This document shows, piece by piece, positions 19,741-53,942 of a stretch of DNA of 53,942 nt. The translations under genes and the position numbers were made by a program. Source of the DNA: Desulfobulbus propionicus. GTDB taxonomy: Bacteria > Desulfobacterota > Dissulfuribacteria > Dissulfuribacterales > DYOW01. The stretch is taken from the NCBI GenBank assembly GCA_020720325.1, contig DYOW01000003.1:3522-57463 (forward strand). Reading direction: 5' to 3'. Below the pieces are notes generated by a model, which was not told where the DNA came from, made no database searches, and saw only the letters and a program-made list of their open reading frames with translations. Every line of letters starts with the position of its first letter. The first letter of the stretch is position 1.

Positions 19741-22695
19741 ATGAGATTATTTTTTTTTATTTTTATATTTTTATTGTTAAATTCAGGTATGGCTTATTCA
19801 ATGACAAATATTGACCTTGATGTGACGGTTAATTTAAATGATAAGGCGCTTTATGGCATAGCAAAGATTTCAAATTATGAAATTTCGCCTGAATTTAACA
19901 ACCCAGGCATTGAAATTTTACATAAAACTCTAAAAAAAGAGAATGAAAAGGATGTTATTTTTATTGAATACAAAACTGATATAGGAAACATATTGGAAAA
20001 CTCCAGGATGTTTTCAGCGGATGATTTCCTGTTTTTATATGACAACTGGTTTCCTGAGGCGGATAATTATGCGATATACAGCCTTAAAGTTTCTGTTCCG
20101 GAAGGTTTTATTCCCATTTCCGAGGCGGATGAAGTCAAAGAAAACAAAGGTAAATATGAATTTATTTTTAATCACCCAAGGGATGAAATAACGCTGATTG
20201 TTGGAAAATTTCACAAAAATTCAATTAAACACCGTGATATTGACATATCAACATATTTTTTGGAAAACGACAGGAATCTAAGCAATCTTTACCTGACAAA
20301 AACAGGGCAGTTTCTTGATAAATACCAGAAACTCCTTGGCAAATTCCCTTTCAAAAAATTTTCTGTAGTTGAAAATCCAGCGCAAACCGGCTACGGCTTT
20401 CCCACATTTACCCTGCTTGGCTCTGCTGTTTTAAGGCTGCCATTCATACCTGACACATCCCTTGGTCATGAACTGGCACATTCATGGTGGGGCAACTCAA
20501 TTTATAATGATTTCTCCAAAGGTAACTGGATTGAAGGCCTCACCACATACCTTTCCGACTATCATTATGAAAAAGAAAAAAATGCTGATACTGCCTACAG
20601 AAAAAATATTATCGTTAAATACATGAGTTATAACGACACAAATTCCACTCCATTAATGGATTTTAAGGGAAATATTGACAATAAAAACGAATCCATTGGT
20701 TATGGAAAAGGGGCTTTTCTCTTTTATACCCTTGAAAATGAAATGGGAGAAAAAAATTTTTATGATGCCCTTAAAGATTTGATAAATACATACAGTTTCA
20801 AAGAAGCAAGCTGGGATGATATAAAAGATACCTTTAATAAATATTCACAAAATAAGCTTGACACAATATTTGACCAGCGCTTAAAAAGAAATGACATACC
20901 TGATATAAATATTTCATCCAATGAACTGCATATTGATGAAAAAGGCGAATTTTTATTGAAAATTACAGTAAATCAGGGCACAAAGATACCATACAACTTA
21001 ACAGTTCCTCTTATAGTTGAAACCCTTTCGGGAAAACAGGATTTTGATATAAATATTTCCGGTGAAAAACAGGATGTGTATCTGAATGTGAATAATTTTC
21101 CCCTTAAGGTGATTATTGACCCTCAATATAAAATAATGCGAAAATTAAGTCCAAACGAATATCCCCCTGTATTTTCCAGAGTAATTGGCGCAAAATCCGG
21201 CATAATGACAATCCATAAAAGTGAGAGGGAAATTTACAGCGAAGCCATTGATTTTTTTACAAATAAAAATAAAAACTATGAAATAATTGAGATTGACGAC
21301 AACTCAGCCTTTGAATGGGAGAAATATAACACGCTTAAATCAATTATTTTTATGGGGACTGTTCCAAAACCTATTCAAAAAATAATAAAAAAACAAGACC
21401 TGAGAAATTCCGGAGTATCCATTGATATTATAAATAATATAGCCAATAATTCCATTATAACCCTCCTAAGAATTGATAAAAAAGAAGAATTTACCAAAAT
21501 CAAAAGAAAATTATTCCATTACGGCAATTATTCAAAAATTGTTTTTTCTGACGGCAAAACCATTGAAAAAGCCTTAAAAAACACCGAGGATGGCATTATC
21601 TATAATATTTATAACCCCATTATGGGCTATAACAAAGATTCCATATTAACATTTAATGATATAATTAATCAGATAGCTAATAAAAAAATAGTCTTTGTTG
21701 GTGAAGAGCATGACAAATATGCGCATCACCTCTTGCAGTTAATGGTCATTAAGGCTCTTAATAAAAAAGGCGTTAAACTGGCCGTTGGAATGGAGATGTT
21801 TCAAAAACCATTTCAAAAGGCATTGGATGATTATATTGAAAGCAAAATAAGTGAACAGGACTTTCTCTCCCAATCAGAATATCTTAAGAGATGGAGCTTT
21901 GATTATAAACTCTACAAACCAATAATAGATTACTGCAGGGCAAATAATATCAGAATTATCGCCCTTAATGCGCCAGTGGAATTAACAAAAAAAATATCCG
22001 AAAAGGGAATTGGCGCGCTTACCCCGGAAGAACAGGAAAATATTCCAAATATTGACATAACAAATAATGAGCACAAAGATTTTGTAAACTATATTTTTTC
22101 ATCCCATAACATATCTGAAAAAAAGGATTTCACCAATTTTTATATGGCCCAGCTTTTATGGGACGAGACAATGGCTGATACAGCGCATAATTTTCTTAAA
22201 AATAATCCCGTATATAAAATGGTGATACTTGCAGGAAACGGTCACATAGAAAATAGATACGGCATTCCAAACCGCCTGACTGCAAGGGGAGACTATGATA
22301 TAACAACCATAACAAATGAGTCTGTTTTGGAAATAAATCCAGAAAAAGCGGATTTTTCCATTATCATGCCCTATTTTGAACAGCCATTCTCAGCCCGGCT
22401 TGGAGTGACTCTGGAAGAAATGCCTGACGGATTATTAATAAAAGATATTGATAAAAATAGCGTTGCAATGAAATCAAATCTCCATAAAAATGACATTATT
22501 TTATTTGCGGATGATGTTAAAATATCAAATCTTTTTTCTCTTAAGGCAATACTGTCAATGAAAAAACAATCCGATACAATCAAACTTAAAATTAAAAGAA
22601 AAAAACAGGATAATCAGGAAGAATATGAAGAGCTTGAGATTATTTCAGAGCCTTTTGACAAAACATCCCGGATGCCTTTTGAACATCCCAAATGA
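19741..22695 (+). CDS. Secreted multidomain protein: M1-type zinc metallopeptidase + ChaN/Tiki-superfamily (haem-binding-uptake-like) domain + PDZ
   Basis: 984-aa ORF with a signal peptide. It has HELAHSWWGN plus WIEGLTTY (HEXXH-E zinc site), a mid region VFVGEEHDKYAHH ... GMEMF ... ILAGNGH (ChaN/Cofac_haem_bdg-like) and a C-terminal PDZ-like segment (GLLIKDIDKNSVAMKSNLHKNDIILFADD). Confidence 0.7.
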   Translation: MRLFFFIFIFLLLNSGMAYSMTNIDLDVTVNLNDKALYGIAKISNYEISPEFNNPGIEILHKTLKKENEKDVIFIEYKTDIGNILENSRMFSADDFLFLYDNWFPEADNYAIYSLKVSVPEGFIPISEADEVKENKGKYEFIFNHPRDEITLIVGKFHKNSIKHRDIDISTYFLENDRNLSNLYLTKTGQFLDKYQKLLGKFPFKKFSVVENPAQTGYGFPTFTLLGSAVLRLPFIPDTSLGHELAHSWWGNSIYNDFSKGNWIEGLTTYLSDYHYEKEKNADTAYRKNIIVKYMSYNDTNSTPLMDFKGNIDNKNESIGYGKGAFLFYTLENEMGEKNFYDALKDLINTYSFKEASWDDIKDTFNKYSQNKLDTIFDQRLKRNDIPDINISSNELHIDEKGEFLLKITVNQGTKIPYNLTVPLIVETLSGKQDFDINISGEKQDVYLNVNNFPLKVIIDPQYKIMRKLSPNEYPPVFSRVIGAKSGIMTIHKSEREIYSEAIDFFTNKNKNYEIIEIDDNSAFEWEKYNTLKSIIFMGTVPKPIQKIIKKQDLRNSGVSIDIINNIANNSIITLLRIDKKEEFTKIKRKLFHYGNYSKIVFSDGKTIEKALKNTEDGIIYNIYNPIMGYNKDSILTFNDIINQIANKKIVFVGEEHDKYAHHLLQLMVIKALNKKGVKLAVGMEMFQKPFQKALDDYIESKISEQDFLSQSEYLKRWSFDYKLYKPIIDYCRANNIRIIALNAPVELTKKISEKGIGALTPEEQENIPNIDITNNEHKDFVNYIFSSHNISEKKDFTNFYMAQLLWDETMADTAHNFLKNNPVYKMVILAGNGHIENRYGIPNRLTARGDYDITTITNESVLEINPEKADFSIIMPYFEQPFSARLGVTLEEMPDGLLIKDIDKNSVAMKSNLHKNDIILFADDVKISNLFSLKAILSMKKQSDTIKLKIKRKKQDNQEEYEELEIISEPFDKTSRMPFEHPK

Positions 22696-23702
22696 GAGCT
22701 GTTAAAATAGCAATTGCCGCAAATTCCTTTGTTTTTATACTTAAACTGTTCTCCGCAGTAATGACAGGCAGCGCCTCCATGTTTGCCGAGGCAATCCATT
22801 CCTTTGCGGATACCGCAAATCAGGCGCTTTTATGGATAGGTTTAAGAAGAAGCAAAATAGGACCCTCAAAAGAATATCCCTTTGGCAGGGGAAAAGAAAT
22901 GTTTGTGTGGGGACTGATATCGGCTTGCGGCATCTTTTTTATTGGTTCAGGCGTCACAATATATCACGGCATTGAGTATTTGATGGAATATCAAAATCCC
23001 CAACTGACTAAATTAAATTATATCATATCTGATGAAATGGGGGAACAACTGGAAAGTATATTTTATACCCATAATAGCGCTCCTAACTTAAATCTCATCG
23101 TCCTTTTGGTTTCCCTTGTTGTTGAGTCAATTCCCCTTTGTATTGCATGGATTGACAAACAGGAAGGAAACACTGCAAATCTTGCCGTAATATTGGAAGA
23201 CAGCGTGGCTGTTCTTGGTGTTGTTCTTGCCTTTATCGCCATATTTCTCTCCAAAATCACTGACTGGTTTATATGGGACGGCATTGGTTCAATTATTATT
23301 GGAATTTTGCTTGGCGCTGTTGCAATTGTGCTAATCAAAAAGAATCTTGAATATCTCATGGAAAAATCCTCCCCTGAAGAGCTAAAGGAAGAGGTTAAGG
23401 AAGAACTGGAAAAAATGCCCCTTATTGAAGATATTAAAGACATAAGAATGATTATCCTTACGCCCACCACCCATCACATCAGGGCAGAGGTTGAGATTAA
23501 CGGTTATCTCCTTGTTAAAGAAATGGAAGACACTCTCAGAGATGAATATGAAGAAATAGAAAATTATTCCGAATTTTTAAGGTTTTGTTCCACATTTGCA
23601 AACAGAATCACAAGGATTGTTGGCTCAAGCATTGATAAAATGGAAGACAGGATAAAGAAAAAAATCACCTATATTAAGAGCGTGGATATAAAGCCGTCAT
23701 AA
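22692..23702 (+). CDS. Cation diffusion facilitator (CDF) family transporter
   Basis: 336-aa ORF with a 4-nt overlap (ATGA) with the upstream gene. TM2 has HSFAD (HxxxD), TM5 has ILEDSVAVLG, and a C-terminal cytoplasmic domain is present. Confidence 0.8.
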   Translation: MRAVKIAIAANSFVFILKLFSAVMTGSASMFAEAIHSFADTANQALLWIGLRRSKIGPSKEYPFGRGKEMFVWGLISACGIFFIGSGVTIYHGIEYLMEYQNPQLTKLNYIISDEMGEQLESIFYTHNSAPNLNLIVLLVSLVVESIPLCIAWIDKQEGNTANLAVILEDSVAVLGVVLAFIAIFLSKITDWFIWDGIGSIIIGILLGAVAIVLIKKNLEYLMEKSSPEELKEEVKEELEKMPLIEDIKDIRMIILTPTTHHIRAEVEINGYLLVKEMEDTLRDEYEEIENYSEFLRFCSTFANRITRIVGSSIDKMEDRIKKKITYIKSVDIKPS

Positions 23703-45369: not shown

Positions 45370-46920
45370 ATGAAGAGAAGGAATTTTCTATCACTTTTTC
45401 TGTTTTTATTTTTATTTTTGTCCACATCCATCACTAATGCCCTTAATATTGATAGTGGAGCAGCAAAAAACTATGTGTTTCTTTTTATAGGTGACGGCAT
45501 GTCTGTTGTTCAGGTTAATGCATCTGAATACTACTTAACATCATTATATAATAAATGTGCCCTTGGTGAGGCAAACAAAAACAACTGCTATCCATTTCCT
45601 GGAGATAAATACGACACATCCGCTCAAGCAAAACTTCCAAGGATTTCCTTCACACAATATCCATATACGGGTATCGCCACAACCTACGGAACAAACTCTT
45701 TTACCCCTGACTCAGCAGACACAGGAACTGCCCTTGCCACAGGTAAAAAAACCAAATCCGGCACAGTTTCAATGGATCCAACAGGCAAAACAATCTATAC
45801 AACCATCGCCGAGGTATTAAAGTCAAAAGGAATGAATGTTGGCATAGTTTCAAGCGTTTCCATTGACCATGCCACCCCAGCTGTTTTTTATTCACACAGC
45901 CCCAGCAGAAACAATTATTATGACATAGCAAAACAGATTCCAACAAGTGGCTTTGACTACTTTGCAGGCGGCGGCTTTGTACAGCCCACAGGTTCCAAAA
46001 AAGATCAAAAAAATATTGTGGATATTATTAAAGAAAGCGGCATGAAATATGTCAACTCAAGGGCAGATTTCGAGACTCTTCCAAATGCCCCCGGACAAAG
46101 GGTTGTTGCGACAAACCCTTCCGCAGGTCTTGATTCTTCCCAGGCTCTTTACTATGACCTTGACAGAAGGTATGTCAACAAGCCAAATGACCACATAACC
46201 CTTGCTGAATACACAAAAAAAGGCATTGACCTGCTCTATGATCCAAAGGGAAGCAATGGCTTTTTTATGATGGTTGAAAGCGGAAAGATTGACTGGGCAA
46301 ATCATGCAAATGATGCGGCATCTTCTATTGCCGATGTAATTGCCTTTGATGAAGCAATAAAGACAGCTTATGATTTCTATAAACAACATCCCAATGAAAC
46401 CATAATTATTGTCACCGGCGACCATGAGTGCGGCGGCATGACAATAGGTTTTGCCGGAACAAAATATAGCACAAATTTTGCAAACCTTTCCAGCCAGAAA
46501 ATGTCCTACATTGAATTTGGCAAAATTGTAAGCTCCTATAAAAATGCAAGCCCCCCGGCAAATATTGCGGATGACATGAAACGCATGATATCAGACACAT
46601 TTGGACTTGATTACAGCAAGCTTACAGATTTCCAGAAAGCTCAGCTTGAAGACGCTTATGACAGAAGCATGGCAGGAAAAGCAATTGTTGGTTCAGAGCA
46701 GGATTACCTTCTCTATGGAGGTTATGATGCCTTAACCGTTACATGCACACATATATTAAATGAAATTTCAGGCATTGCATGGACATCATACTCTCACACA
46801 GGAGTTCCGGTTCCTGTTTATGCTGTTGGAAAGGAATCAAACAAATTTACCGGTCAGATGGATAATACTGATATTCCTAAAAAACTTTCCGAAATCACAG
46901 GCTACAGCTTGCCTAAATAA
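45370..46920 (+). CDS. Alkaline phosphatase (PhoA family), secreted
   Basis: 516-aa ORF with a signal peptide, the active-site region PDSADTGTALATGKKT and metal-ligand regions (DHATPA, DWANHAND, TGDHECGG, SHTG). Confidence 0.85.
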   Translation: MKRRNFLSLFLFLFLFLSTSITNALNIDSGAAKNYVFLFIGDGMSVVQVNASEYYLTSLYNKCALGEANKNNCYPFPGDKYDTSAQAKLPRISFTQYPYTGIATTYGTNSFTPDSADTGTALATGKKTKSGTVSMDPTGKTIYTTIAEVLKSKGMNVGIVSSVSIDHATPAVFYSHSPSRNNYYDIAKQIPTSGFDYFAGGGFVQPTGSKKDQKNIVDIIKESGMKYVNSRADFETLPNAPGQRVVATNPSAGLDSSQALYYDLDRRYVNKPNDHITLAEYTKKGIDLLYDPKGSNGFFMMVESGKIDWANHANDAASSIADVIAFDEAIKTAYDFYKQHPNETIIIVTGDHECGGMTIGFAGTKYSTNFANLSSQKMSYIEFGKIVSSYKNASPPANIADDMKRMISDTFGLDYSKLTDFQKAQLEDAYDRSMAGKAIVGSEQDYLLYGGYDALTVTCTHILNEISGIAWTSYSHTGVPVPVYAVGKESNKFTGQMDNTDIPKKLSEITGYSLPK

Positions 46921-47007: not shown

Positions 47008-48132
47008 ATGAACAAAACTCATCAAAAAAAAGCCGACATTATTTTTGTCATTGTCCTTATCTGTTTTTCTTTGTTTTTATTCTATCTTCCCACTGGATTT
47101 GAAAAAAACCTCATTAACACAGAAAAGGCAAAGGCAAGGATTATCTCTGTTGATAATTCCATAATTGAAAACACAACCATAATTAAACTTGGCTCACAAA
47201 TATTGGCTGTGGAGATTATACAGGGCAAATACAAAGACAAAAAAATAGAAATTTTTAACCAGCTCACAGGCAAGATGGATTTTGACGAAATTTACAATGC
47301 GGGACAGGAAATAATGGTGGAGTTTTCTTTAGATGAAAATGAGAATATTATAAGCGGAGTCGCAAGGGGAACTTACAGGCTTGAAAACATCTTTTTATTA
47401 TTTTTGCTTTTTTCAGGGCTTCTTTTTATTGCCGCGGGCTGGACAGGCTTTAAGGCGCTTTTGTCCTTTGTGTTCACAGCTCTTTTATTGTGGAAGGTAA
47501 TGGTTCCACTTTTTTTAAAAGGTTATGACCCTGTATGGATTGCAATGGGAATAATAACAGGTCTTGTTTTAACAATCAGTTTTCTTATAGGAGGATTCAC
47601 AAGGCTTGGCATTATCACTGCCCTTGGTTCAATCACCGGGCTTTTGCTCACCTGCATTCTTGCTCAGATATTTATCCAGCCCTTCAGGATTCACGGCGCA
47701 GTGCTGCCTTTTTCAGAAAATCTTCTTTTTTCTGGGTTTCAGGTTAATCTTTCAAAAGTATTTATAGCAAGCATTTTTATTGCGTCAGCAGGAGCTGTGC
47801 TTGACCTTGCCATGGATGTGGCCGCGGCGATGAATGAAATAAAAGAGAAAAAACCCAATATTTCCATGATGGAGCTTATAAAATCAGGCTTTAGTGTGGG
47901 AAAGGCTGTTCTTGGAACAATGACCACAACGCTTTTATTTGCATATTCAGGCGGTTATATCACAATGCTGATGTTTTTCATGGGTTCAGGCATTCCCTGG
48001 CAAAATATTGTGAATCTGCACCTGATTTCAGCAGAGATATTAAATACCCTTGTGGGAAGCTTTGGACTGGTCACAGTCGCTCCGTTTACAGCCATTGCAG
48101 GGGGAATTATTTATTCATGGAAAAATGTCTAA
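47008..48132 (+). CDS. YibE/F-family integral membrane protein
   Basis: 374-aa ORF with an N-terminal TM plus an extracytoplasmic beta-rich segment, then ~7 TM segments. It resembles YibE/F-like proteins by eye. Confidence 0.5.
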   Translation: MNKTHQKKADIIFVIVLICFSLFLFYLPTGFEKNLINTEKAKARIISVDNSIIENTTIIKLGSQILAVEIIQGKYKDKKIEIFNQLTGKMDFDEIYNAGQEIMVEFSLDENENIISGVARGTYRLENIFLLFLLFSGLLFIAAGWTGFKALLSFVFTALLLWKVMVPLFLKGYDPVWIAMGIITGLVLTISFLIGGFTRLGIITALGSITGLLLTCILAQIFIQPFRIHGAVLPFSENLLFSGFQVNLSKVFIASIFIASAGAVLDLAMDVAAAMNEIKEKKPNISMMELIKSGFSVGKAVLGTMTTTLLFAYSGGYITMLMFFMGSGIPWQNIVNLHLISAEILNTLVGSFGLVTVAPFTAIAGGIIYSWKNV

Positions 48133-48153
48133 ATCATTTAAAAATTTATTATA

Positions 48154-48231
48154 AGATTCCTCGCTTCACCCGAAATGACACTTAATGACACTTTTATATG
48201 TCATTACGAGGAATAAAGCGCCGAGCAATCT
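48154..48231. repeat. REP-like palindromic element related to the core of the copy A/C MITE
   Basis: Sequence AGATTCCTCGCTTCACCCGAAATGACA...TGTCATTACGAGGAATAAAGCGCCGAGCAATCT. It has the same AGATTxCTxGCT / CGxAATGAC / GTCATTxCGAGGAA / AGCAATCT blocks but lacks the CTCTAAAAAT termini. It sits between convergent genes. Confidence 0.65.
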
Positions 48232-48281
48232 TAATCATATTGGAAAAAATTTTAATTCTTAAAGATTTCCTAAAATTAAAA

Positions 48282-49262
48282 TCATAAAAAAACTCTATCT
48301 TTGGGAAGAATACACGACTCAGCCGTGCAAAGTGTTATTTCAACGGTGATATGAGACAAATTTTCAATGTCTTTCAATAATGCCTTGTAGTGTTCCGCTG
48401 GTTTGGGATAATGCGTTACAAGCGATATTATCACAGCGTAATCATTTGGTCCAACTTTCCATAAATGCAGGTCTGCAATGCGGTTGTCTGAATCTGACTC
48501 AATTATTTTTTTTATAAGACTTTCTTTAGTATTTTCTGTATTTTCATCCAAAAGTATGGGACTGGTTTCCATTAATAAATTTAGTGACCAGCGGGATATA
48601 ACCAGAGCGCCAACCAAACCAGCCACAGGGTCAAACCAATTCCAACCGTATATTTTTCCTGCAAAAAGCGCTGCTATTGCAAGAAAAGAGGTTAAAGCAT
48701 CAGCTACTACATGAAAATAGGCAGCCTTAAGATTATGGTCATTATGCGAATGAGCGTGATTTTCGTCTTCATCATGATGATTATGTGTATTTTGATGGTC
48801 ATGTTCATGATGACCCTTAAGGAGAAAAGCGCTCAAAATATTGATAAAAAGACCAAGCGCAGCAACAATGATGGCTTCATTAAATTTAATTTCTTCAGGA
48901 TTGAATATGCGCCCTATTGATTCCACGGACATTATCAAGGCAACCACAAATAATCCAACTGCGCTTGAAAATCCCCCAAGAACGCTTACCTTGCCTGTTC
49001 CAAAGGTAAATAAAGGATTATTTTCATGCTTTTTGGCATAATTATATGCAAATATCGTAATCATAAAGGCAGCTACATGTGTCGCCATGTGCCAGCCGTC
49101 AGCCAGAAGAGCCATAGAGCCAAAAGAGATGCCTGCAATAATCTCAACAATCATTGTGACAGCGGTTAAGCATAAAACCTGTTTGACGCGTGATTCACCT
49201 TTTTTATGAATCACTGCAAAATCATGGTTATGCCGCAATGTTTCAAGTGTTTGAACGTGCAT
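48282..49262 (-). CDS. Cation diffusion facilitator (CzcD/ZitB-like) with a His-rich cytoplasmic loop
   Basis: 326-aa ORF. TM2 has LLADGWHMATH, TM5 has FHVVADALTS, and the loop is HHEHDHQNTHNHHDEDENHAHSHNDH. Confidence 0.85.
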   Translation of the reverse strand: MHVQTLETLRHNHDFAVIHKKGESRVKQVLCLTAVTMIVEIIAGISFGSMALLADGWHMATHVAAFMITIFAYNYAKKHENNPLFTFGTGKVSVLGGFSSAVGLFVVALIMSVESIGRIFNPEEIKFNEAIIVAALGLFINILSAFLLKGHHEHDHQNTHNHHDEDENHAHSHNDHNLKAAYFHVVADALTSFLAIAALFAGKIYGWNWFDPVAGLVGALVISRWSLNLLMETSPILLDENTENTKESLIKKIIESDSDNRIADLHLWKVGPNDYAVIISLVTHYPKPAEHYKALLKDIENLSHITVEITLCTAESCILPKDRVFL

Positions 49263-49286
49263 TAAAATCCCCTTTTTAATAAAATA

Positions 49287-49568
49287 TTAGTTCCCGCAAG
49301 CCCTGATGAGCGTCCATATTCCTATGGCTATAAATCCAAATCCGGCAAGATAATGCAGATGTTTTTCACAAACATATTGCGAAATAATGCCACCTGCAAT
49401 AACTCCAATTGCGGAAGTAAAAATTAAAGCCAGGAATGAAGCTAAAAATATCATAAATTTACTGATATTTTTGTCTGCGGCAAAAAGCATTGTGGCAAGC
49501 TGAGTCTTGTCTCCAAGCTCAGCAATAAAAACAGTTGCAAAAACAGCAAAAAAAAATTTGTTATCCAT
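49287..49568 (-). CDS. UPF0016 (GDT1/TMEM165/MneA-like) family membrane protein, single-domain form
   Basis: 93-aa ORF with three hydrophobic segments and the family signature ELGDKTQLAT in the first one. Confidence 0.75.
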   Translation of the reverse strand: MDNKFFFAVFATVFIAELGDKTQLATMLFAADKNISKFMIFLASFLALIFTSAIGVIAGGIISQYVCEKHLHYLAGFGFIAIGIWTLIRACGN

Positions 49569-49629
49569 TTAAAAATACAATAATTAATTGGGAAGAACAA
49601 TCATGATTTATCATTAGTCCTGAAATTTT

Positions 49630-49767
49630 TTAGGGCTCATTTGAACCGCATGAGCCGCAGCTCCCGCCGCAACCGCCGCAGCCCTTTATAAAGGTGCGGA
49701 AAAGAAAATAAATTGCCCCTCCAAGAATTAAACTCATTAATATGATATCAAAAATACCAATGTCCAT
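49630..49767 (-). CDS. 45-aa Cys-rich single-TM peptide (resembles the FeoB-associated Cys-rich membrane protein family)
   Basis: Not in the ORF track because it is under 60 aa. Hand translation gives MDIGIFDIILMSLILGGAIYFLFRTFIKGCGGCGGSCGSCGSNEP*. A strong SD, AAGGAGGAAAA, lies 7 nt upstream, and the ORF starts 26 nt after the ATPase stop. Confidence 0.7.
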   Translation of the reverse strand: MDIGIFDIILMSLILGGAIYFLFRTFIKGCGGCGGSCGSCGSNEP

Positions 49768-49793
49768 ATATTTTCCTCCTTGTTAAAGTTTTT

Positions 49794-51905
49794 TTATTTT
49801 TTTAATGGCAGAAACGAATTTAAAAGTGTTGATAATGTAAGGATATTATGCAAAAAAGCAGCGGATAGAGGTCCTATAAATCCGGTTGAGGCAGAAAGCA
49901 ATATTAAGGAGTTTAACCCGGTTGAGATATTAAAGTTTTTGTTTATTATATCCATGGTGTCAACGGCTATTTCTTTGGCGGTGACAACAGGATATATTTC
50001 ATTTTTTATCAAGACAATATCCGCCACATCTTTAGCCATATCAGATGCGTTATAAACAGCGATGCTCACATCAGCGATGGAAAGCGCGGGAGCGTCATTT
50101 ATTCCGTCCCCGCAAAAAGCGATGATATTACATTCTTCTCTCTTTAATTCTTCTATTATTCTGGATTTATCTTCAGGAAGCAGTTTATAATAAACCTCAT
50201 CAAGCCCTATCTCTTCTGAAACAGCCATAGCCTTGTTTTTCTCATCGCCTGTAAGCATAATGACCTTGACAGCGCCCGATTTTTTCAATGCGATTATGGT
50301 ATCTTTGGCATCATGTCTTAATTTTTCCTTTAATGCTATAATGCCTATTGGCTCATAGTCCATAGTCATATAAAGAAGGGTTTTTCCTTCCAAAATAAAG
50401 GATTTTATTTTATTGTCATATTCATCAAAGGAAATATCCTCGTCTTCCTCAATAAAGTGATTGCTTCCCACCAGAACCTGTTTTTCATACACATTAGCCT
50501 TTAGCCCGTGTGCAATAATATATTCAACATCTGAATGTTTTATGTGCTTTAATTCCTTTTGCCTTGCATGTCTTACAATAGCCTGACCCACAGGATGATT
50601 ATAGTGTTCCTCAAGCGAGGCTGCCATAGCAAGAATATCATTTTCATTATAATCCTGATGAAAAGAGATTAAGTCCGTTATTTCCATGTGTTCTGATGTT
50701 AATGTGCCTGTCTTGTCGAAAACAAAAACATTGGCTCTGGAAAGCTTTTCAAATGCATTTCCGCCCTTTATGATTACTCCTTCAGTTGTCGCTTTATACA
50801 TTGAAGACTTAAAGGCAACAGATGGAGAAAGCTTTATGGCGCAGGCATAATCAACAAGTAAAACAGAAGCTGTTCTTTTTATGTCCCTTGTTAAAATATA
50901 GACTATAGAGGCAATAATCAATGTTATAAAAACACTCCTGTCTCCAAGTTTATCCGAATATCTCTGAATATTGCTTTTTGATGCAAGAGATTTTAATATA
51001 TATGAGGATATTCTTGCTGTTATGGTTTCTATTCCTATTTTTTCAGCCCTTATTTTAATAGCTCCTTCCCTTACTGTTGAGCCGGACAATGCATAGTCAT
51101 TTATTTCTTTTTTTATTGGTATTCCCTCTCCTGTAAGGGAAGACTCGTCAACAAGCGCTCCTCCTGAAATAACTGTTCCGTCTATTGGAATTATATTGCC
51201 TGCGTTGACAGACACTATATCATTAATATCTATATCATTTATATTTATCTCTATAAGATTATTATCTCTTTCAACCCAGATTTTTTCTATTGATGGATTT
51301 AATAATTTTGTTATTGCTTTATCCGCCTGATTAGTGGTGAAATATTCAAGATATTCTCCTGTTTCTATGAGAAGATATGTCAGGTTTGCCGCAAGATAAT
51401 TTTTTCTTAAAAGAGATATAAGCACAGCCAATGCGGATAAAACATCCGCTTTAATGCCTTCAAGAAATAATTTTTTTATTCCTCTTAGCAAAAGCGGCGA
51501 CACTGATATAAAGGTCAGGATATTTTTCAATGTCTGGGGCATTATAGGCAAAAACAATAATAAAACTATGCTTCTTGATATGTGAAAAAGGTCTTTTTGT
51601 TCAATTTCTCCTGGATATACAAAGCGCTCGGTATTTTCATCACTAAAATAATTTATAATTCCGTCAATTATTTTTTCCCTTGTTTCAATATTATTATCAT
51701 AATTAACAATAACGGAATTAGCCAGAAGATTTATTCTGGTTGCGGTCACGCCCTGTATTTTTTCAAAAAAAGCAATAATTTTTATGCTGCTTATTGAATT
51801 TAAATTTACATTAAAAGCCTTAAAGCGTATTCTTTTAGGGATTTCATGCGCTATATAAATATTGCTTTTTTTCAGTTTCAGGTTTTGATTTATTATGTTA
51901 TTCAT
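49794..51905 (-). CDS. P1B-type (heavy-metal) P-type ATPase with a non-canonical transmembrane metal site (YAC in place of CPC) and a Cys-less HMA-like N-terminus; FezB/P1B-6-like candidate
   Basis: 703-aa ORF. Motifs: TGE (SLTGEG), DKTGTLT, the HP dipeptide (YNHPVGQAIV) diagnostic of P1B pumps, MLTGD, GDGINDAPAL. The TM helix before DKTGT reads LLVDYACAIKLSPS, with no CPx/SPC/TPC. Confidence 0.8.
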   Translation of the reverse strand: MNNIINQNLKLKKSNIYIAHEIPKRIRFKAFNVNLNSISSIKIIAFFEKIQGVTATRINLLANSVIVNYDNNIETREKIIDGIINYFSDENTERFVYPGEIEQKDLFHISRSIVLLLFLPIMPQTLKNILTFISVSPLLLRGIKKLFLEGIKADVLSALAVLISLLRKNYLAANLTYLLIETGEYLEYFTTNQADKAITKLLNPSIEKIWVERDNNLIEININDIDINDIVSVNAGNIIPIDGTVISGGALVDESSLTGEGIPIKKEINDYALSGSTVREGAIKIRAEKIGIETITARISSYILKSLASKSNIQRYSDKLGDRSVFITLIIASIVYILTRDIKRTASVLLVDYACAIKLSPSVAFKSSMYKATTEGVIIKGGNAFEKLSRANVFVFDKTGTLTSEHMEITDLISFHQDYNENDILAMAASLEEHYNHPVGQAIVRHARQKELKHIKHSDVEYIIAHGLKANVYEKQVLVGSNHFIEEDEDISFDEYDNKIKSFILEGKTLLYMTMDYEPIGIIALKEKLRHDAKDTIIALKKSGAVKVIMLTGDEKNKAMAVSEEIGLDEVYYKLLPEDKSRIIEELKREECNIIAFCGDGINDAPALSIADVSIAVYNASDMAKDVADIVLIKNEIYPVVTAKEIAVDTMDIINKNFNISTGLNSLILLSASTGFIGPLSAAFLHNILTLSTLLNSFLPLKK

Positions 51906-51910
51906 ATTTT

Positions 51911-52001
51911 TTTGTCTGAATCACGGATTACACGGAAAGGAAAGAACTAATTTAAGCGTCTGAACTGATTTTTTAGAATTAATGAATTAACAGAACTAAT
52001 G
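51911..52001. repeat. Partial copies of a second short-repeat family (GTCTGAATCA / GGATTA-CA-type units)
   Basis: TTTGTCTGAATCACGGATTACACGG (51911-51935) shares its first 13 nt with the left arm of the 52387-52487 palindrome. A related GTCTGAACTGATTTTTTAGAATTAATGAATTAACAGAAC follows. Confidence 0.5.
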
Positions 52002-52091
52002 GAGGCAATTTTTTTGTGAATTCATGTATTAATTTTTTTCAGCCACTCAGACTATCATTAACTGCCTTGCCTTTTTATGTATTAATAATGT

Positions 52092-52277
52092 TTAGTTTTT
52101 ATGCGCAAAAGGATTATAAAGATTATAATGCCACAGTGAAAATCCTATCATGGATACCCCTGCGATAGTATGGTATTCCCAGTTTGCCCTGCCCCTGCCC
52201 ATTCCTGTCCATACGAGATAGAGCATAGAAAGCGTCATGCCTGTTTTGACAATACTGTTTATTGTTTTTTTTTCCAT
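52092..52277 (-). CDS. 61-aa two-helix membrane protein with conserved-looking His residues (DUF4405-like?)
   Basis: It is the only ORF in a 620-nt gap. It has two hydrophobic helices (MTLSMLYLVWTGMG; HTIAGVSMIGFSLWH), no SD, and is co-directional with the cluster. Confidence 0.5.
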   Translation of the reverse strand: MEKKTINSIVKTGMTLSMLYLVWTGMGRGRANWEYHTIAGVSMIGFSLWHYNLYNPFAHKN

Positions 52278-52386
52278 ATTATTTTAATTAAGTTTATTTA
52301 TTTTAAGTTTTATTATTTATACATACAAAAGTAATGGCGCAAAGTATCATTTTAGAGAAGAATTCAGTTTACATATAACACACTTA

Positions 52387-52487
52387 TTTGTCTGAATCAG
52401 TATTTTCAGGATTAAAGGATAAACAGGATAAGCTGTTGATGGGCATCCTGTAAATCTTAAAATCCTGTGTATCCTGATTCAGACAAA
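52387..52487. repeat. 101-nt imperfect palindrome (MITE/REP-like) in the intergenic region inside the cluster
   Basis: Perfect 14-nt arms TTTGTCTGAATCAG (52387-52400) / CTGATTCAGACAAA (52474-52487). The inner arms are built of CAGGAT(T/A)-type units and are largely complementary. Confidence 0.8.
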
Positions 52488-52527
52488 AATTAACAGCTTT
52501 ACTAATAAAGATGTTAATTAATAATAG

Positions 52528-52872
52528 TTATACTGATTCCTTCTCTTCCTTTTTAAGATTTATTTCCTGTTTTACATCCTCAAATTTTTCTTTAATCTCT
52601 TCAATACCTGAAACCACCCCTGTCCAGGACTGAGCCACTGCCTTTAAGATAAATTTCTGGACATTTTCATTGCTGAGAACAAGAGTCAATCCCGCTCCGA
52701 TTAATAATCCCTGCCAGAGATATCCTGAGCCAAAATCAAATCCCAAAATTCTGGGATAATTCTGCTGTGGGTATTGATAAACAGGATAATTTGACTGATA
52801 TAAATTTGATGCAGGATAATAGCCCTGATTTGCGTAATCAGGAAAGACATTAGGCTGGCGGTGACTGCTCAT
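52528..52872 (-). CDS. Small membrane protein: Q/N/P/Y-rich N-terminus, YtxH-like GxxxG helix, charged coiled C-terminus
   Basis: 114-aa ORF. The N-terminal region is QPNVFPDYANQGYYPASNLYQSNYPVYQYPQQNYP, followed by FDFGSGYLWQGLLIGAGLTLVLSNENVQK. The start overlaps the upstream stop (TAATG). It is paralogous in the helix region to 53304-53942. Confidence 0.7.
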   Translation of the reverse strand: MSSHRQPNVFPDYANQGYYPASNLYQSNYPVYQYPQQNYPRILGFDFGSGYLWQGLLIGAGLTLVLSNENVQKFILKAVAQSWTGVVSGIEEIKEKFEDVKQEINLKKEEKESV

Positions 52873-53273
52873 TAGGATTTTTCTCCTTGTTCTTCAGTAT
52901 TTTGAGGCGCTGCCTTTGGTTTTCCAATATATGACATAAGATAACCAACGCCAGTTGCTGTCGCCGCCATAAATAAAAACGGAACTACTCCCCTTGCGCC
53001 TGTCATCTGGGCAACTGATGTTCCCGCAAATGTGGCGACCCCTGCCATTCCACCTTTGACAAGGCTGTCAATGCCTGCCTGTGTCCATGTCATTTGATTT
53101 GACTGGACTTTATGGATATTATTTCCCATGCTGAGTGTGGCGCCAACAATAACGCCGAATAAACCTGTGCTTAATGCCAGTCTGCTGTTAAAATAATTTG
53201 CGGGATAGTAATTATAAGATTGTTGCGGATACTGATAGTTTTGGTTTGGAAAATTTGAATGAGACATAGACAT
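52872..53273 (-). CDS. Small two-helix membrane protein with Q/N/Y-rich N-terminus and a MamC-like helix-loop-helix core
   Basis: 133-aa ORF with AAGGAGAAAC 6 nt upstream. The N-terminal region is NFPNQNYQYPQQSYNYYPANYFN. TM1 is GLFGVIVGATLSMG, the loop is NNIHKVQSNQMTWTQAGIDSLVKGG, and TM2 is the Gly/Ala-rich MAGVATFAGTS...VVPFLFMAATATGVGYLMSYIG. Confidence 0.7.
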   Translation of the reverse strand: MSMSHSNFPNQNYQYPQQSYNYYPANYFNSRLALSTGLFGVIVGATLSMGNNIHKVQSNQMTWTQAGIDSLVKGGMAGVATFAGTSVAQMTGARGVVPFLFMAATATGVGYLMSYIGKPKAAPQNTEEQGEKS

Positions 53274-53303
53274 ATAGTTTCTCCTTATTTTTTATATTTT
53301 AAA

Positions 53304-53942
53304 TTATTTAATTGGTTGTCCTGATGAGAATATATTTGCAAGTCCTTCTTTAACTGATTTATTTGTCAGCAAAAAAGCAATCAAAGAGCCTGCAATCAAT
53401 CCTTTCCAGAATTGTTCATGGTTAAAATCCACCGAAAAAACTGAAAAAATCTCATCTGGCTGTGCCTGACCCGCCATTATTCTGTTAACTGTTTCCATTG
53501 CCATGCCAAACCTGTTTTCCATGTGTTTTGGATGGTGATGGGGTGAATGACTGTGGCTTTGCATTGATGAATGGCTTTGCTGCTGAGGATTGTAGTAATT
53601 AGCCTGATTAGGATCAGCATATTGAGCATGTGGATTGACAAATGGATTTTGAGTCTGATATGGATTTGAAAAAGGGGGATAACCATAAGGATTCATAAAA
53701 TTTGGCGGGACAAATCCTGGAGGTCCATAAGGCTGGGCTTGAAAATTATGGGGAAGAGTCTGCTGAAAAGGAGCGCCATACATCATCTGAGCCTGCATAA
53801 GTTCCTGTCCAAACATCATCTCAGAGCTAAAAGGATTCTGCTGTGGATGCAGCTGGGGCTGGAAATGAGGATTTGTGGGTTGCGGTTGCGGCTGAAAATT
53901 AGGCTGGGGATGTGGCTGGGGATGTGGCTGGGGATGTGGCTG
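53304..53942 (-). CDS. Membrane protein with a long P/Q/H/N/Y-rich low-complexity region and a C-terminal YtxH-like GxxxG helix (5' end outside the window)
   Basis: The frame stays open to the window edge, upstream of the tracked Met at 53819. Hand translation of 53942-53820 gives QPHPQPHPQPHPQPNFQPQPQPTNPHFQPQLHPQQNPFSSE. There is a His cluster HSSMQSHSHSPHHHPKH, and the C-terminus is FWKGLIAGSLIAFLLTNKSVKEGL. Confidence 0.7.
   Translation of the reverse strand, partial: QPHPQPHPQPHPQPNFQPQPQPTNPHFQPQLHPQQNPFSSEMMFGQELMQAQMMYGAPFQQTLPHNFQAQPYGPPGFVPPNFMNPYGYPPFSNPYQTQNPFVNPHAQYADPNQANYYNPQQQSHSSMQSHSHSPHHHPKHMENRFGMAMETVNRIMAGQAQPDEIFSVFSVDFNHEQFWKGLIAGSLIAFLLTNKSVKEGLANIFSSGQPIK
53902..53942. 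repeat. 12-nt tandem repeat GGCTGGGGATGT (at least 3.4 copies, truncated by the window end), coding for (QPHP)n on the minus strand
   Basis: Identical units at 53902-53913, 53914-53925 and 53926-53937, plus a partial unit at 53938-53942. Confidence 0.9.

Follow-up and report, generated by a model that had tools for sequence, protein, structure and literature searches.

A probable ferrosome gene cluster with three additional metal-handling genes in an uncultured Thermodesulfobacteriota bacterium

Does a cluster of eight genes around an atypical heavy-metal ATPase encode a ferrosome, and do the three metal-handling genes that follow the pump belong to the organelle? The ferrosome is a recently described bacterial organelle that has been studied experimentally in four species. 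The question was raised by one end of a 53,942-nucleotide (nt) stretch of contig DYOW01000003.1, here called the window, where eight co-directional open reading frames (ORFs) lie on the minus strand from 48282 to 53942 (Table 1). A first-pass annotation, made from the letters alone, had taken them for either a divergent ferrosome (fez) locus or an undescribed variant in which three kinds of transporter act as one system. The ORFs with their coordinates, the spacings and the motifs that it listed were all recovered when we recomputed them. Our analysis indicates that the locus is likely the fez cluster of an uncultured Thermodesulfobacteriota bacterium, in which the genes behind the pump, for a Cys-rich peptide, a UPF0016 protein and a cation diffusion facilitator (CDF), would be a recent add-on. 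By its sequence it appears to be a genuine cluster of known architecture that has gained this trio and lost a FezH-like pump.

Placement of the ATPase among P1B pumps

The 703-amino-acid (aa) ATPase carries the TGE, FDKTGTLT, HP and GDGINDAP motifs and has YACA, not CPx, in transmembrane helix 4 (TM4), in line with the non-CPx P-type pump that had been proposed from the letters. It was compared with the published definition of FezB (P1B-6), which consists of D[Y/F]SCA in TM4, HNxxT in TM6 and an N-terminal R-rich motif (RxR/RxRxR) (Grant et al., preprint 10.1101/2020.01.10.902569). The TM6 signature was present as HNILT at residues 686-690, with H686, N687 and T690 invariant in our family alignment A1, and the R-rich motif was present as HEIPKRIRFK, whose R25 and R27 are invariant in the same alignment. 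The N-terminal domain matched the Pfam HMA_2 model at 9e-7 and 29.4 bits, just below the 30-bit cut-off, and an AlphaFold2 (AF2) model with a predicted local distance difference test (pLDDT) score of 81 placed a ferredoxin-like fold at residues 16-88.

A neighbour-joining (NJ) tree was built over 558 trimmed columns from 105 P1B ATPases, comprising 39 FezB-motif proteins, 3 FezH-like proteins, CopA and ZntA of E. coli, and 61 other pumps from a genome scan. All the FezB-motif proteins, the window ATPase included, fell into one clade that was separated from the 66 other P1B ATPases with a bootstrap value of 99/100. Within it, the nearest neighbours of the window ATPase were two metagenome proteins (100/100), followed by a protein from a Thermodesulfovibrionales metagenome-assembled genome (MAG; 78/100). 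A further member of the clade is P0111, which adjoins a DUF6110 FezA-like gene; a C. difficile protein falls into the 90% cluster of P0111. The best match in the PDB was CopA at 254 bits, the maximum for a canonical P1B pump, whereas FezB-family proteins from outside the lineage of the window reached 371-682 bits. A phylogeny of this kind had been suggested in the first-pass annotation, and it groups the pump with the FezB-motif proteins, not with the canonical CPC/SPC pumps; judged from motifs and tree, the window ATPase is a member of the P1B-6/FezB clade.

Further loci were collected in several ways. Scanning a genome collection with the ATPase alignment returned many generic P-type motifs; among the matches listed were at least 17 more FezB-type loci together with outgroup ATPases, and none of the four experimentally studied ferrosome species. 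A metagenome scan with the single ATPase as query found nothing, and one with the narrower alignment A6 gave 13 loci. Hidden Markov models (HMMs) made from the family alignments were then run over 37 loci.

Small membrane proteins and conserved gene order

Upstream of the pump, the core of the cluster runs from a low-complexity GxxxG protein (gene 1) through a MamC-like protein and a FezA-like protein with an amphipathic tail to a 61-aa two-helix protein, and the same order, pump included, recurs in a Thermodesulfovibrionales MAG (L005). A pairwise search of the neighbouring genes gave identities there of 42%, 46%, 35%, 55% and 47%, in core order; on its flanks that cluster has feoB, a FeoA-domain gene, and genes for an HMA_2 protein and for a second, CPC-type ATPase. 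The five-gene order was found in two unrelated lineages, one represented by the Thermodesulfovibrionales MAGs L005/L006 and the other by L096/L097, and a partial core, often with FeoA or FeoB, in Albibeggiatoa (L007), an Arcobacter plasmid (L014), Rhodobacter capsulatus (L018), Vibrio owensii (L114) and eight metagenome loci. In the HMM scan, the order MamC-like, 114-like, FezB was detected in L005, L007, L014, L018, L096, L100, L102, L105-107, L109 and L110. An operon of this type with six genes is present in V. owensii, and on the Arcobacter plasmid DUF2202 and a gene annotated as YtxH are found as well. In Firmicute, Actinobacteria and Desulfovibrionaceae loci the unit consists instead of two genes, FezA (DUF6110) and FezB.

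The N-terminal tails of the three upstream small proteins consist to 53-65% of Q, N, P, Y and H, and each protein has a GxxxG helix (GLIAG in gene 1, GVIVG in the 133-aa protein and GLLIG in the 114-aa protein); composition and motif check thus agree with what had been described from the letters. The gene 1 product has a 280-aa low-complexity N-terminus rich in Q, P, N, H and Y with a His-rich patch (HSHSPHHHPKH), and a conserved C-terminal module with one GxxxG helix (FWKGLIAGSLIAF). Homologues occupy the same position in L004 (77%), the 90% relative, in L005 (42% over the C-terminal module), and in L096, L018 and L099-L102. It may be a fez GxxxG protein of the FezE/FezG kind, a letter assignment made by description only. 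In near-identical strains gene 1 was 316, 310 or 307 aa long, the difference lying in QPHP/QPQP-type repeats, and the contigs of several assemblies break within its low-complexity stretch.

In alignment A4 of the 114-aa family the GxxxG residues G55 and G59 are invariant, and in many loci a gene of this type lies directly 5' of FezB. The family was aligned by hhalign with the FezA/DUF6110 family (A5), whose members adjoin FezB in Mailhella, in Clostridioides and in eleven further loci of Firmicutes or Actinobacteria, at a probability of 85.8% (E 5.4e-6, 66 columns). Two of the eight members of the 114-aa family matched YtxH and two matched DUF5132, so the earlier YtxH-like label holds at the level of the family. 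For the 61-aa protein, seven residues (K11, M14, H36, G40, F46, H50 and Y54) are invariant in alignment A7, and eight of 11 family members matched DUF4405 (PF14358), the best with an E-value of 5e-4. FezC, which has a DUF4405-like membrane domain, was shown to bind haem b and was modelled as a homodimer (PMC11334425). The 61-aa protein is thus a candidate haem-b cytochrome, and would act as a homodimer.

Published fez operons of Shewanella putrefaciens and Rhodopseudomonas palustris have six genes, and "larger" clusters add the FezH ATPase, a DUF4405 protein and a FeoA-domain protein (10.1101/2020.01.10.902569). The window locus shares with these multi-gene operons the P1B-6 ATPase (D[Y/F]xCA, HNxxT, R-rich N-terminus), two GxxxG proteins and a two-helix, putatively DUF4405-like protein, and its gene order is that of V. 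owensii, R. capsulatus, the Thermodesulfovibrionales cluster L005 and L096. It differs in that it has no separate HMA_2 (FezC/FezD-like) protein and no FeoA-domain gene, that the window strain lacks the FezH-like second ATPase present in L004, L113, L005 and L096, and that it has Ala for Ser in TM4, unusually long low-complexity tails and three extra transporter genes after fezB; the letters FezE, FezF and FezG were matched to its proteins by description only. The fezAB pair of C. difficile was reportedly described by Pi and co-workers in Nature in 2023. Compared with it, the window pump is 33% identical to Clostridioides P0111, and the 114-aa protein resembles the FezA family (hhalign 86%), also in having a GxxxG helix followed by an amphipathic one, whereas the Firmicute two-gene clusters (DUF6110 plus pump) have no MamC-like, DUF4405 or low-complexity proteins.

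Collectively, the signature motifs, the clade placement, the family links to FezA and DUF4405 and the synteny with FeoA or FeoB across phyla speak for a fez-type locus built around a non-CPx P1B-6 ATPase and GxxxG proteins, one of the two readings first proposed. The word "divergent" should be dropped, the five-gene core being the standard arrangement of proteobacterial and Nitrospirota-type clusters. The neighbourhood comparison called for in the first-pass annotation found the small ORFs conserved in order beside FezB-type pumps across phyla, which marks them as real genes tied to the pump; as far as gene order can tell, the partnership of a FezB-type pump with four small proteins is a conserved one.

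These results bear directly on a more ordinary explanation, a heavy-metal efflux island in which the ATPase, the CDF and the UPF0016 protein would export toxic metals at the cell membrane and the small ORFs would be unrelated or not genes at all. NCBIfam places the ATPase in the generic heavy-metal subfamily TIGR01525 (476 bits) and the CDF in DmeF, and no iron genes were found nearby among the window proteins scanned, all of which would suit such an island. However, the pump falls among the FezB proteins, apart from the CPC/SPC pumps, and four upstream small proteins are kept in order beside pumps of its type. The FezB-clade ATPase and the conserved synteny led us to reject the efflux island, which we consider highly improbable.

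For the 133-aa protein, the NCBIfam MamC equivalog model (NF038051) gave an E-value of 2.2e-7 and 31.1 bits, below its 100-bit cut-off, and Pfam PF26373 is assigned to it in precomputed data. The match spans helix 1, the loop and helix 2 (residues 33-94 on model positions 9-70 of 97), the elements that form the conserved core of the family, with the loop (N-L-H-K-V...M-T..A..D-S-L.K-G) best conserved; in MamC this loop is the mineral-facing part. A word-indexed homologue search with the protein gave two matches, and an exhaustive search of 1.84 billion representative proteins was used instead. It returned only 33 relatives at E <= 1e-3, all of them matching the MamC model, the best at 9e-20. 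MamC-like genes adjoin a FezB-type ATPase in 14 other loci and in V. owensii. R. capsulatus, V. owensii, Arcobacter and Albibeggiatoa are not known to be magnetotactic, and MamC-like genes beside FezB in such bacteria point to a Fez component that shares ancestry with MamC rather than to a magnetosome gene.

Judged by its model score and its partners, the 133-aa protein is MamC-like, not MamC, and the label given to it from the letters stands at family level. Compared with magnetosome MamC (Mms13), the likeness lies in the model match over helix 1, loop and helix 2, where the loop is kept best, whereas the window protein scores far below the cut-off, has an additional QNY-rich tail and is partnered by FezB instead of mam genes; the mineral expected at this locus would be amorphous Fe phosphate, not magnetite. 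The gene neighbourhoods show a MamC homologue as an apparently regular component of proteobacterial and Nitrospirota-type fez clusters, which suggests that a ferrosome protein and a magnetosome protein are of shared ancestry. We found no discussion of this link in the accessible literature, and the most interesting by-product of the analysis is that fez clusters contain a MamC homologue in bacteria for which magnetotaxis is not known.

The same match, taken together with the CDF, might instead mark a degraded or novel magnetosome gene cluster, and one relative of the ATPase does come from a Magnetococcales MAG. Yet the MamC score of 31 bits stands against a cut-off of 100, the CDF reached 44.6 bits with MamB and 33.6 bits with MamM where both cut-offs are 350, and no mam or mad family was detected in Pfam scans of 30 window proteins, 13 of which were also scanned against NCBIfam. 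Moreover, the MamC-like genes of R. capsulatus, V. owensii and the Arcobacter plasmid accompany FezB in hosts not known to be magnetotactic. With sub-threshold scores for MamC, MamB and MamM and with fez genes as partners, the magnetosome reading was rejected, and we give it practically no credence.

Several points weigh against the fez assignment, which was made from sequence. DYACA in TM4 agrees with D[Y/F]SCA at four of five positions, the published Ser being replaced by Ala. Of about 120 relatives, 60 have DYSCA, 39 DFSCA and 8 DYACA, so that Ser-to-Ala is a minority state within the FezB family; the eight include the Beggiatoaceae proteins P0006 and P0008, and P0006, from Albibeggiatoa, is encoded in a fez-type cluster (L007). 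In the tree, the FezB proteins that have been studied by experiment are represented by proxies only (Clostridioides P0111 and Mailhella L032), and clade membership depends on these proxies and on the published motifs. The published six-helix topology of FezB, with no MA/MB pair, was not clearly reproduced by the predictions for the window ATPase: hydropathy gave about six clear segments, and AF2 placed four helices (106-121, 124-149, 153-166 and 170-202) between the N-domain and the A-domain. The FezA link of the 114-aa family is a profile-profile score of moderate strength, and the window 61-aa protein by itself gave no match to DUF4405. None of the 30 window proteins scanned against Pfam matched the FeoA, FeoB, Fur or DtxR families; iron neighbours of the feo/Fur/DtxR type, frequent though not obligatory in fez clusters, do adjoin the homologous clusters L005, L007, L017 and L096. 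Upstream of gene 1 the best Fur box had 6 mismatches in 19 (13/19), which is not significant in AT-rich DNA. Finally, the likelier site of the trio may be the cell membrane rather than the organelle membrane, although its location is a guess.

Ferrosome formation needs FezA and FezB, and E. coli expressing both forms ferrosomes (10.1101/2025.09.22.677801); the ferrosome mineral is Fe phosphate (PMC13307979). By analogy with experiments on other species, a vesicle formed from the cytoplasmic membrane would be shaped or coated by the small membrane proteins of the window; FezB would pump cytoplasmic Fe(II) into it at the expense of ATP, and there the iron would precipitate with phosphate. A dimer of the 61-aa protein around haem b might carry electrons across the organelle membrane and so control the redox state of the iron. 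The locus would extend the fez system to an uncultured lineage of sulfur-cycle Thermodesulfobacteriota.

The three genes downstream of the pump

The 45-aa ORF is preceded by an AAGGAGG Shine-Dalgarno sequence 6 nt upstream of its ATG, the strong site that had been claimed for it. Against the FeoB-associated family PF12669 its product reached an E-value of 0.011 and 16.5 bits, under the 27-bit cut-off, and the assignment to that type is not supported: the likeness is one of architecture (one helix plus a CGxC-rich tail), and no feoB lies nearby. The other two calls were upheld by Pfam. The UPF0016 protein scored 70.3 bits with PF01169 against a cut-off of 27, and its E-x-G-D-[KR]-[TS] motif reads ELGDKT; a single domain with no second copy in the cluster implies a homodimer. 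The CDF, whose loop has 11 His in 34 residues, scored 405.8 bits with the NCBIfam DmeF model (NF033827; cut-off 250), residues 11-309 aligning with model positions 2-308. P1B, CDF and UPF0016 transporters all move cations out of the cytoplasm. The two window proteins share with DmeF/CzcD-type CDFs and with the UPF0016 (GDT1/MneA/Mnx) Mn/Ca-H+ antiporters the above-cut-off scores, the His-rich loop and ELGDKT; they differ in that their genes lie 26-61 nt behind fezB with no NiCo or yybP-ykoY riboswitch, and in that there is one single-domain UPF0016 protein.

Homologues of the trio adjoin a FezB-type pump only in loci of the window strain (L001-L003, L010 and L011) and in L004, whose ATPase is 90% identical. 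The Cys peptide recurs in L004 at 95% and is absent from other fez loci, and no CDF or UPF0016 ORF was found in the fetched flanks of the 29 other FezB-type loci. In a 61% relative (L112/L113) the trio is also absent, and an HDAC-family gene follows 283 nt after the pump; the fez system thus does not need these genes. In related clusters the position of the trio is held by a FeoA-domain gene. This distribution identifies the trio as an apparently recent, lineage-specific add-on, restricted to the window strain and its 90% relative. The short gaps behind the ATPase (26, 61 and 24 nt) and the absence from them of any terminator-like site or Rfam family make co-transcription with fezB likely, and the trio is probably expressed in this way.

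Could the added transporters nevertheless have become part of the organelle? FezB, the CDF and the UPF0016 protein might sit together in the ferrosome membrane and load several metals, or exchange lumenal H+ arising from mineral precipitation, with the Cys peptide as a metal-handling partner. This would accord with the tight co-directional gaps and the lack of an independent riboswitch, with the arrangement of the trio being kept in L004, with the fact that all three transporter classes export cations from the cytoplasm, and with the analogy to the CDF pair MamB/MamM of magnetosomes. Against it stand the 29 FezB-type loci and the 61% relative without the trio, and the CDF itself, a high-scoring DmeF equivalog that is not MamB/M-like; the location at the place of the FeoA-domain gene suggests replacement and does not speak for integration. 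We consider this arrangement rather unlikely. The three transporters as one system, the second of the two original proposals, found no comparative support beyond the window strain and its 90% relative, and the functional integration of the trio into the organelle is to be regarded as unproven on such comparisons. A joint version goes further and combines a multi-metal ferrosome, with the P1B-6 ATPase, the DmeF-type CDF and the UPF0016 protein in one membrane, the Cys peptide as partner, Fe co-deposited with Mn, Co or Zn and the mineralisation protons removed, with the MamC-like protein as a mark of shared ancestry between ferrosome and magnetosome membrane proteomes; both parts holding together seems to us quite improbable.

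For the favoured reading, a fez cluster with an add-on, our best guess is that the trio encodes ordinary divalent-cation/H+ antiporters, which might clear the cytoplasm of Mn, Co, Ni, Zn or surplus Fe during iron sequestration. The locus is a natural variant with three cation-export genes in place of the usual FeoA-domain gene, and as such offers a handle on the possible recruitment of other transporters to the organelle; should the extra genes prove to be plain efflux pumps, it would simply be one more fez cluster.

Junctions, repeat elements and surroundings

Recomputed from the coordinates, gene 1 and gene 2 are separated by 30 nt, and gene 2 and gene 3 overlap by 1 nt at 52872 (TAATG). Gaps of 250 nt and 186 nt follow, between gene 3 and the 61-aa gene and between the latter and the ATPase; then come 26 nt to the Cys peptide, 61 nt to the UPF0016 (GDT1) gene and 24 nt to the CDF. 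The repeats that had been reported in two of the larger gaps are indeed there, as 13-mer copies in the 250-nt and 186-nt gaps and an inverted repeat. All three exact copies of the 13-mer TGATTCAGACAAA lie in these gaps (0.23 expected by chance), and the inverted repeat, with 43-nt arms, would fold into an RNA hairpin of -42.2 kcal/mol (z = -7.7). In L004 the gap between the 61-aa gene and the ATPase is only 49 nt, and the 13-mer and palindrome elements are missing. As they are absent from that relative, where the gaps are shorter or different, we read them as recent small palindromic insertions rather than conserved operators, and the 13-mer was set aside as a regulator site; the palindromic elements possibly act as mRNA stem-loops. 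An Rfam scan of 47500-53942 detected no riboswitch or other RNA family, NiCo and yybP-ykoY included, and none of the three junctions between the ATPase and the CDF showed a terminator-like site. Upstream of gene 1, a promoter-like TTGACA-17-TA(T/A)ATT was observed in L002, a near-identical contig of the window strain (1480-1583; TTGACA-17-TATATT), and in L004 (2700-2808), and just 5' of it both lineages have a conserved block of about 20 nt, GA.A.AGAA.CTCATTA, which agrees with the Fur-box consensus in only 13 of 19 positions.

Table 1. Features of the cluster, its counterparts in related loci and neighbouring genes. Positions refer to the window unless a locus is named.
Feature	Position	Strand	Remarks
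Gene 1, 3' part (212 codons) of a 316-aa protein	53304-53942	-	full gene read in L002 1584-2534
Gene 1 length variants compared	window 53820-53942; L002 1584-2534; L011 694-1626; L004 2809-3732		
133-aa MamC-like membrane protein (gene 2)	52872-53273	-	QNY-rich N-terminus, hydrophobic segments with GxxxG, loop N-x-H-K-V...T..A.DS..KG
MamC-like genes in other fez clusters	L018 9120-9710; L114 4395-4700; L014 7292-7645; L007 6791-7147		
114-aa FezA-like/YtxH-like protein (gene 3)	52528-52872	-	QNPY-rich tail, GxxxG helix, charged C-terminal amphipathic helix (GIEEIKEKFEDVKQE)
Palindromic 101-nt element	52387-52487	.	in 250-nt gap; ends are TGATTCAGACAAA and its reverse complement
13-mer copies	51911-51923, 52387-52399, 52475-52487		two of them bound the palindrome 52387-52487
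61-aa two-helix protein	52092-52277	-	minimal, like DUF4405/FezC membrane domain
186-nt gap before ATPase	51906-52091	.	third 13-mer copy (51911-51923) and about 135 nt not in L004
703-aa FezB-type P1B-6 ATPase	49794-51905	-	HMA_2-like N-domain, R-rich HEIPKRIRFK, TM4 DYACA, TM6 HNILT
45-aa Cys-rich peptide	49630-49767	-	one TM helix, C-terminal GCGGCGGSCGSCGS tail
93-aa single-domain UPF0016/GDT1 cation/H+ antiporter subunit	49287-49568	-	ELGDKT; PF01169 1.7e-19
326-aa DmeF-type CDF, His-rich cytoplasmic loop	48282-49262	-	PF01545 1.8e-37
FezH-like second ATPase in relatives	L004 299-2476; L113 1-474; L005 3566-5776; L096 4602-6809		window-strain counterpart region L002 1-1583
984-aa M1 peptidase/ChaN/PDZ fusion	19741-22695	+	
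Second CDF	22692-23702	+	4-nt overlap with the M1/ChaN/PDZ gene
Alkaline phosphatase	45370-46920	+	convergent to the cluster
YibE/F membrane protein	47008-48132	+	convergent to the cluster; adjacency kept in L004 (9777-12539)

The first-pass annotation had also held that the window edge cuts the cluster and that more genes may lie beyond. Gene 1 is indeed truncated by the edge and is complete, at 316 aa, in L002. In that contig a 600-nt spacer upstream of gene 1 is followed by HicAB/DUF4258 genes on the opposite strand, so the cluster ends there in this strain. In relatives the gene for a second, CPC-type ATPase (FezH-like, with an R-rich or HMA_2 N-terminus and H-[IV]-x-H-T in TM6) directly precedes gene 1. 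In the window strain its place is taken by HicA/HicB and DUF4258 toxin-antitoxin genes, which suggests that this strain has lost or moved that pump.

The remaining window is ordinary chromosome, with Tol-Pal, menaquinone synthesis, DnaJ, ThyX and signalling proteins. The G+C content of the window is about 35%, and its EF-G shares 76-80% identity with proteins from MAGs of Dissulfuribacterales and other Thermodesulfobacteriota. Elsewhere in it, a fusion of M1 peptidase, ChaN haem-binding (Tiki) and PDZ domains overlaps a second CDF with weak scores against FieF, MamB and MamM, and the two may be another iron-related pair. Next to the cluster lie an alkaline phosphatase gene and a YibE/F gene in convergent orientation. 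Since the ferrosome mineral is iron phosphate, a phosphate link of these two neighbours is conceivable, and their adjacency, which is kept in L004, may equally be a coincidence.

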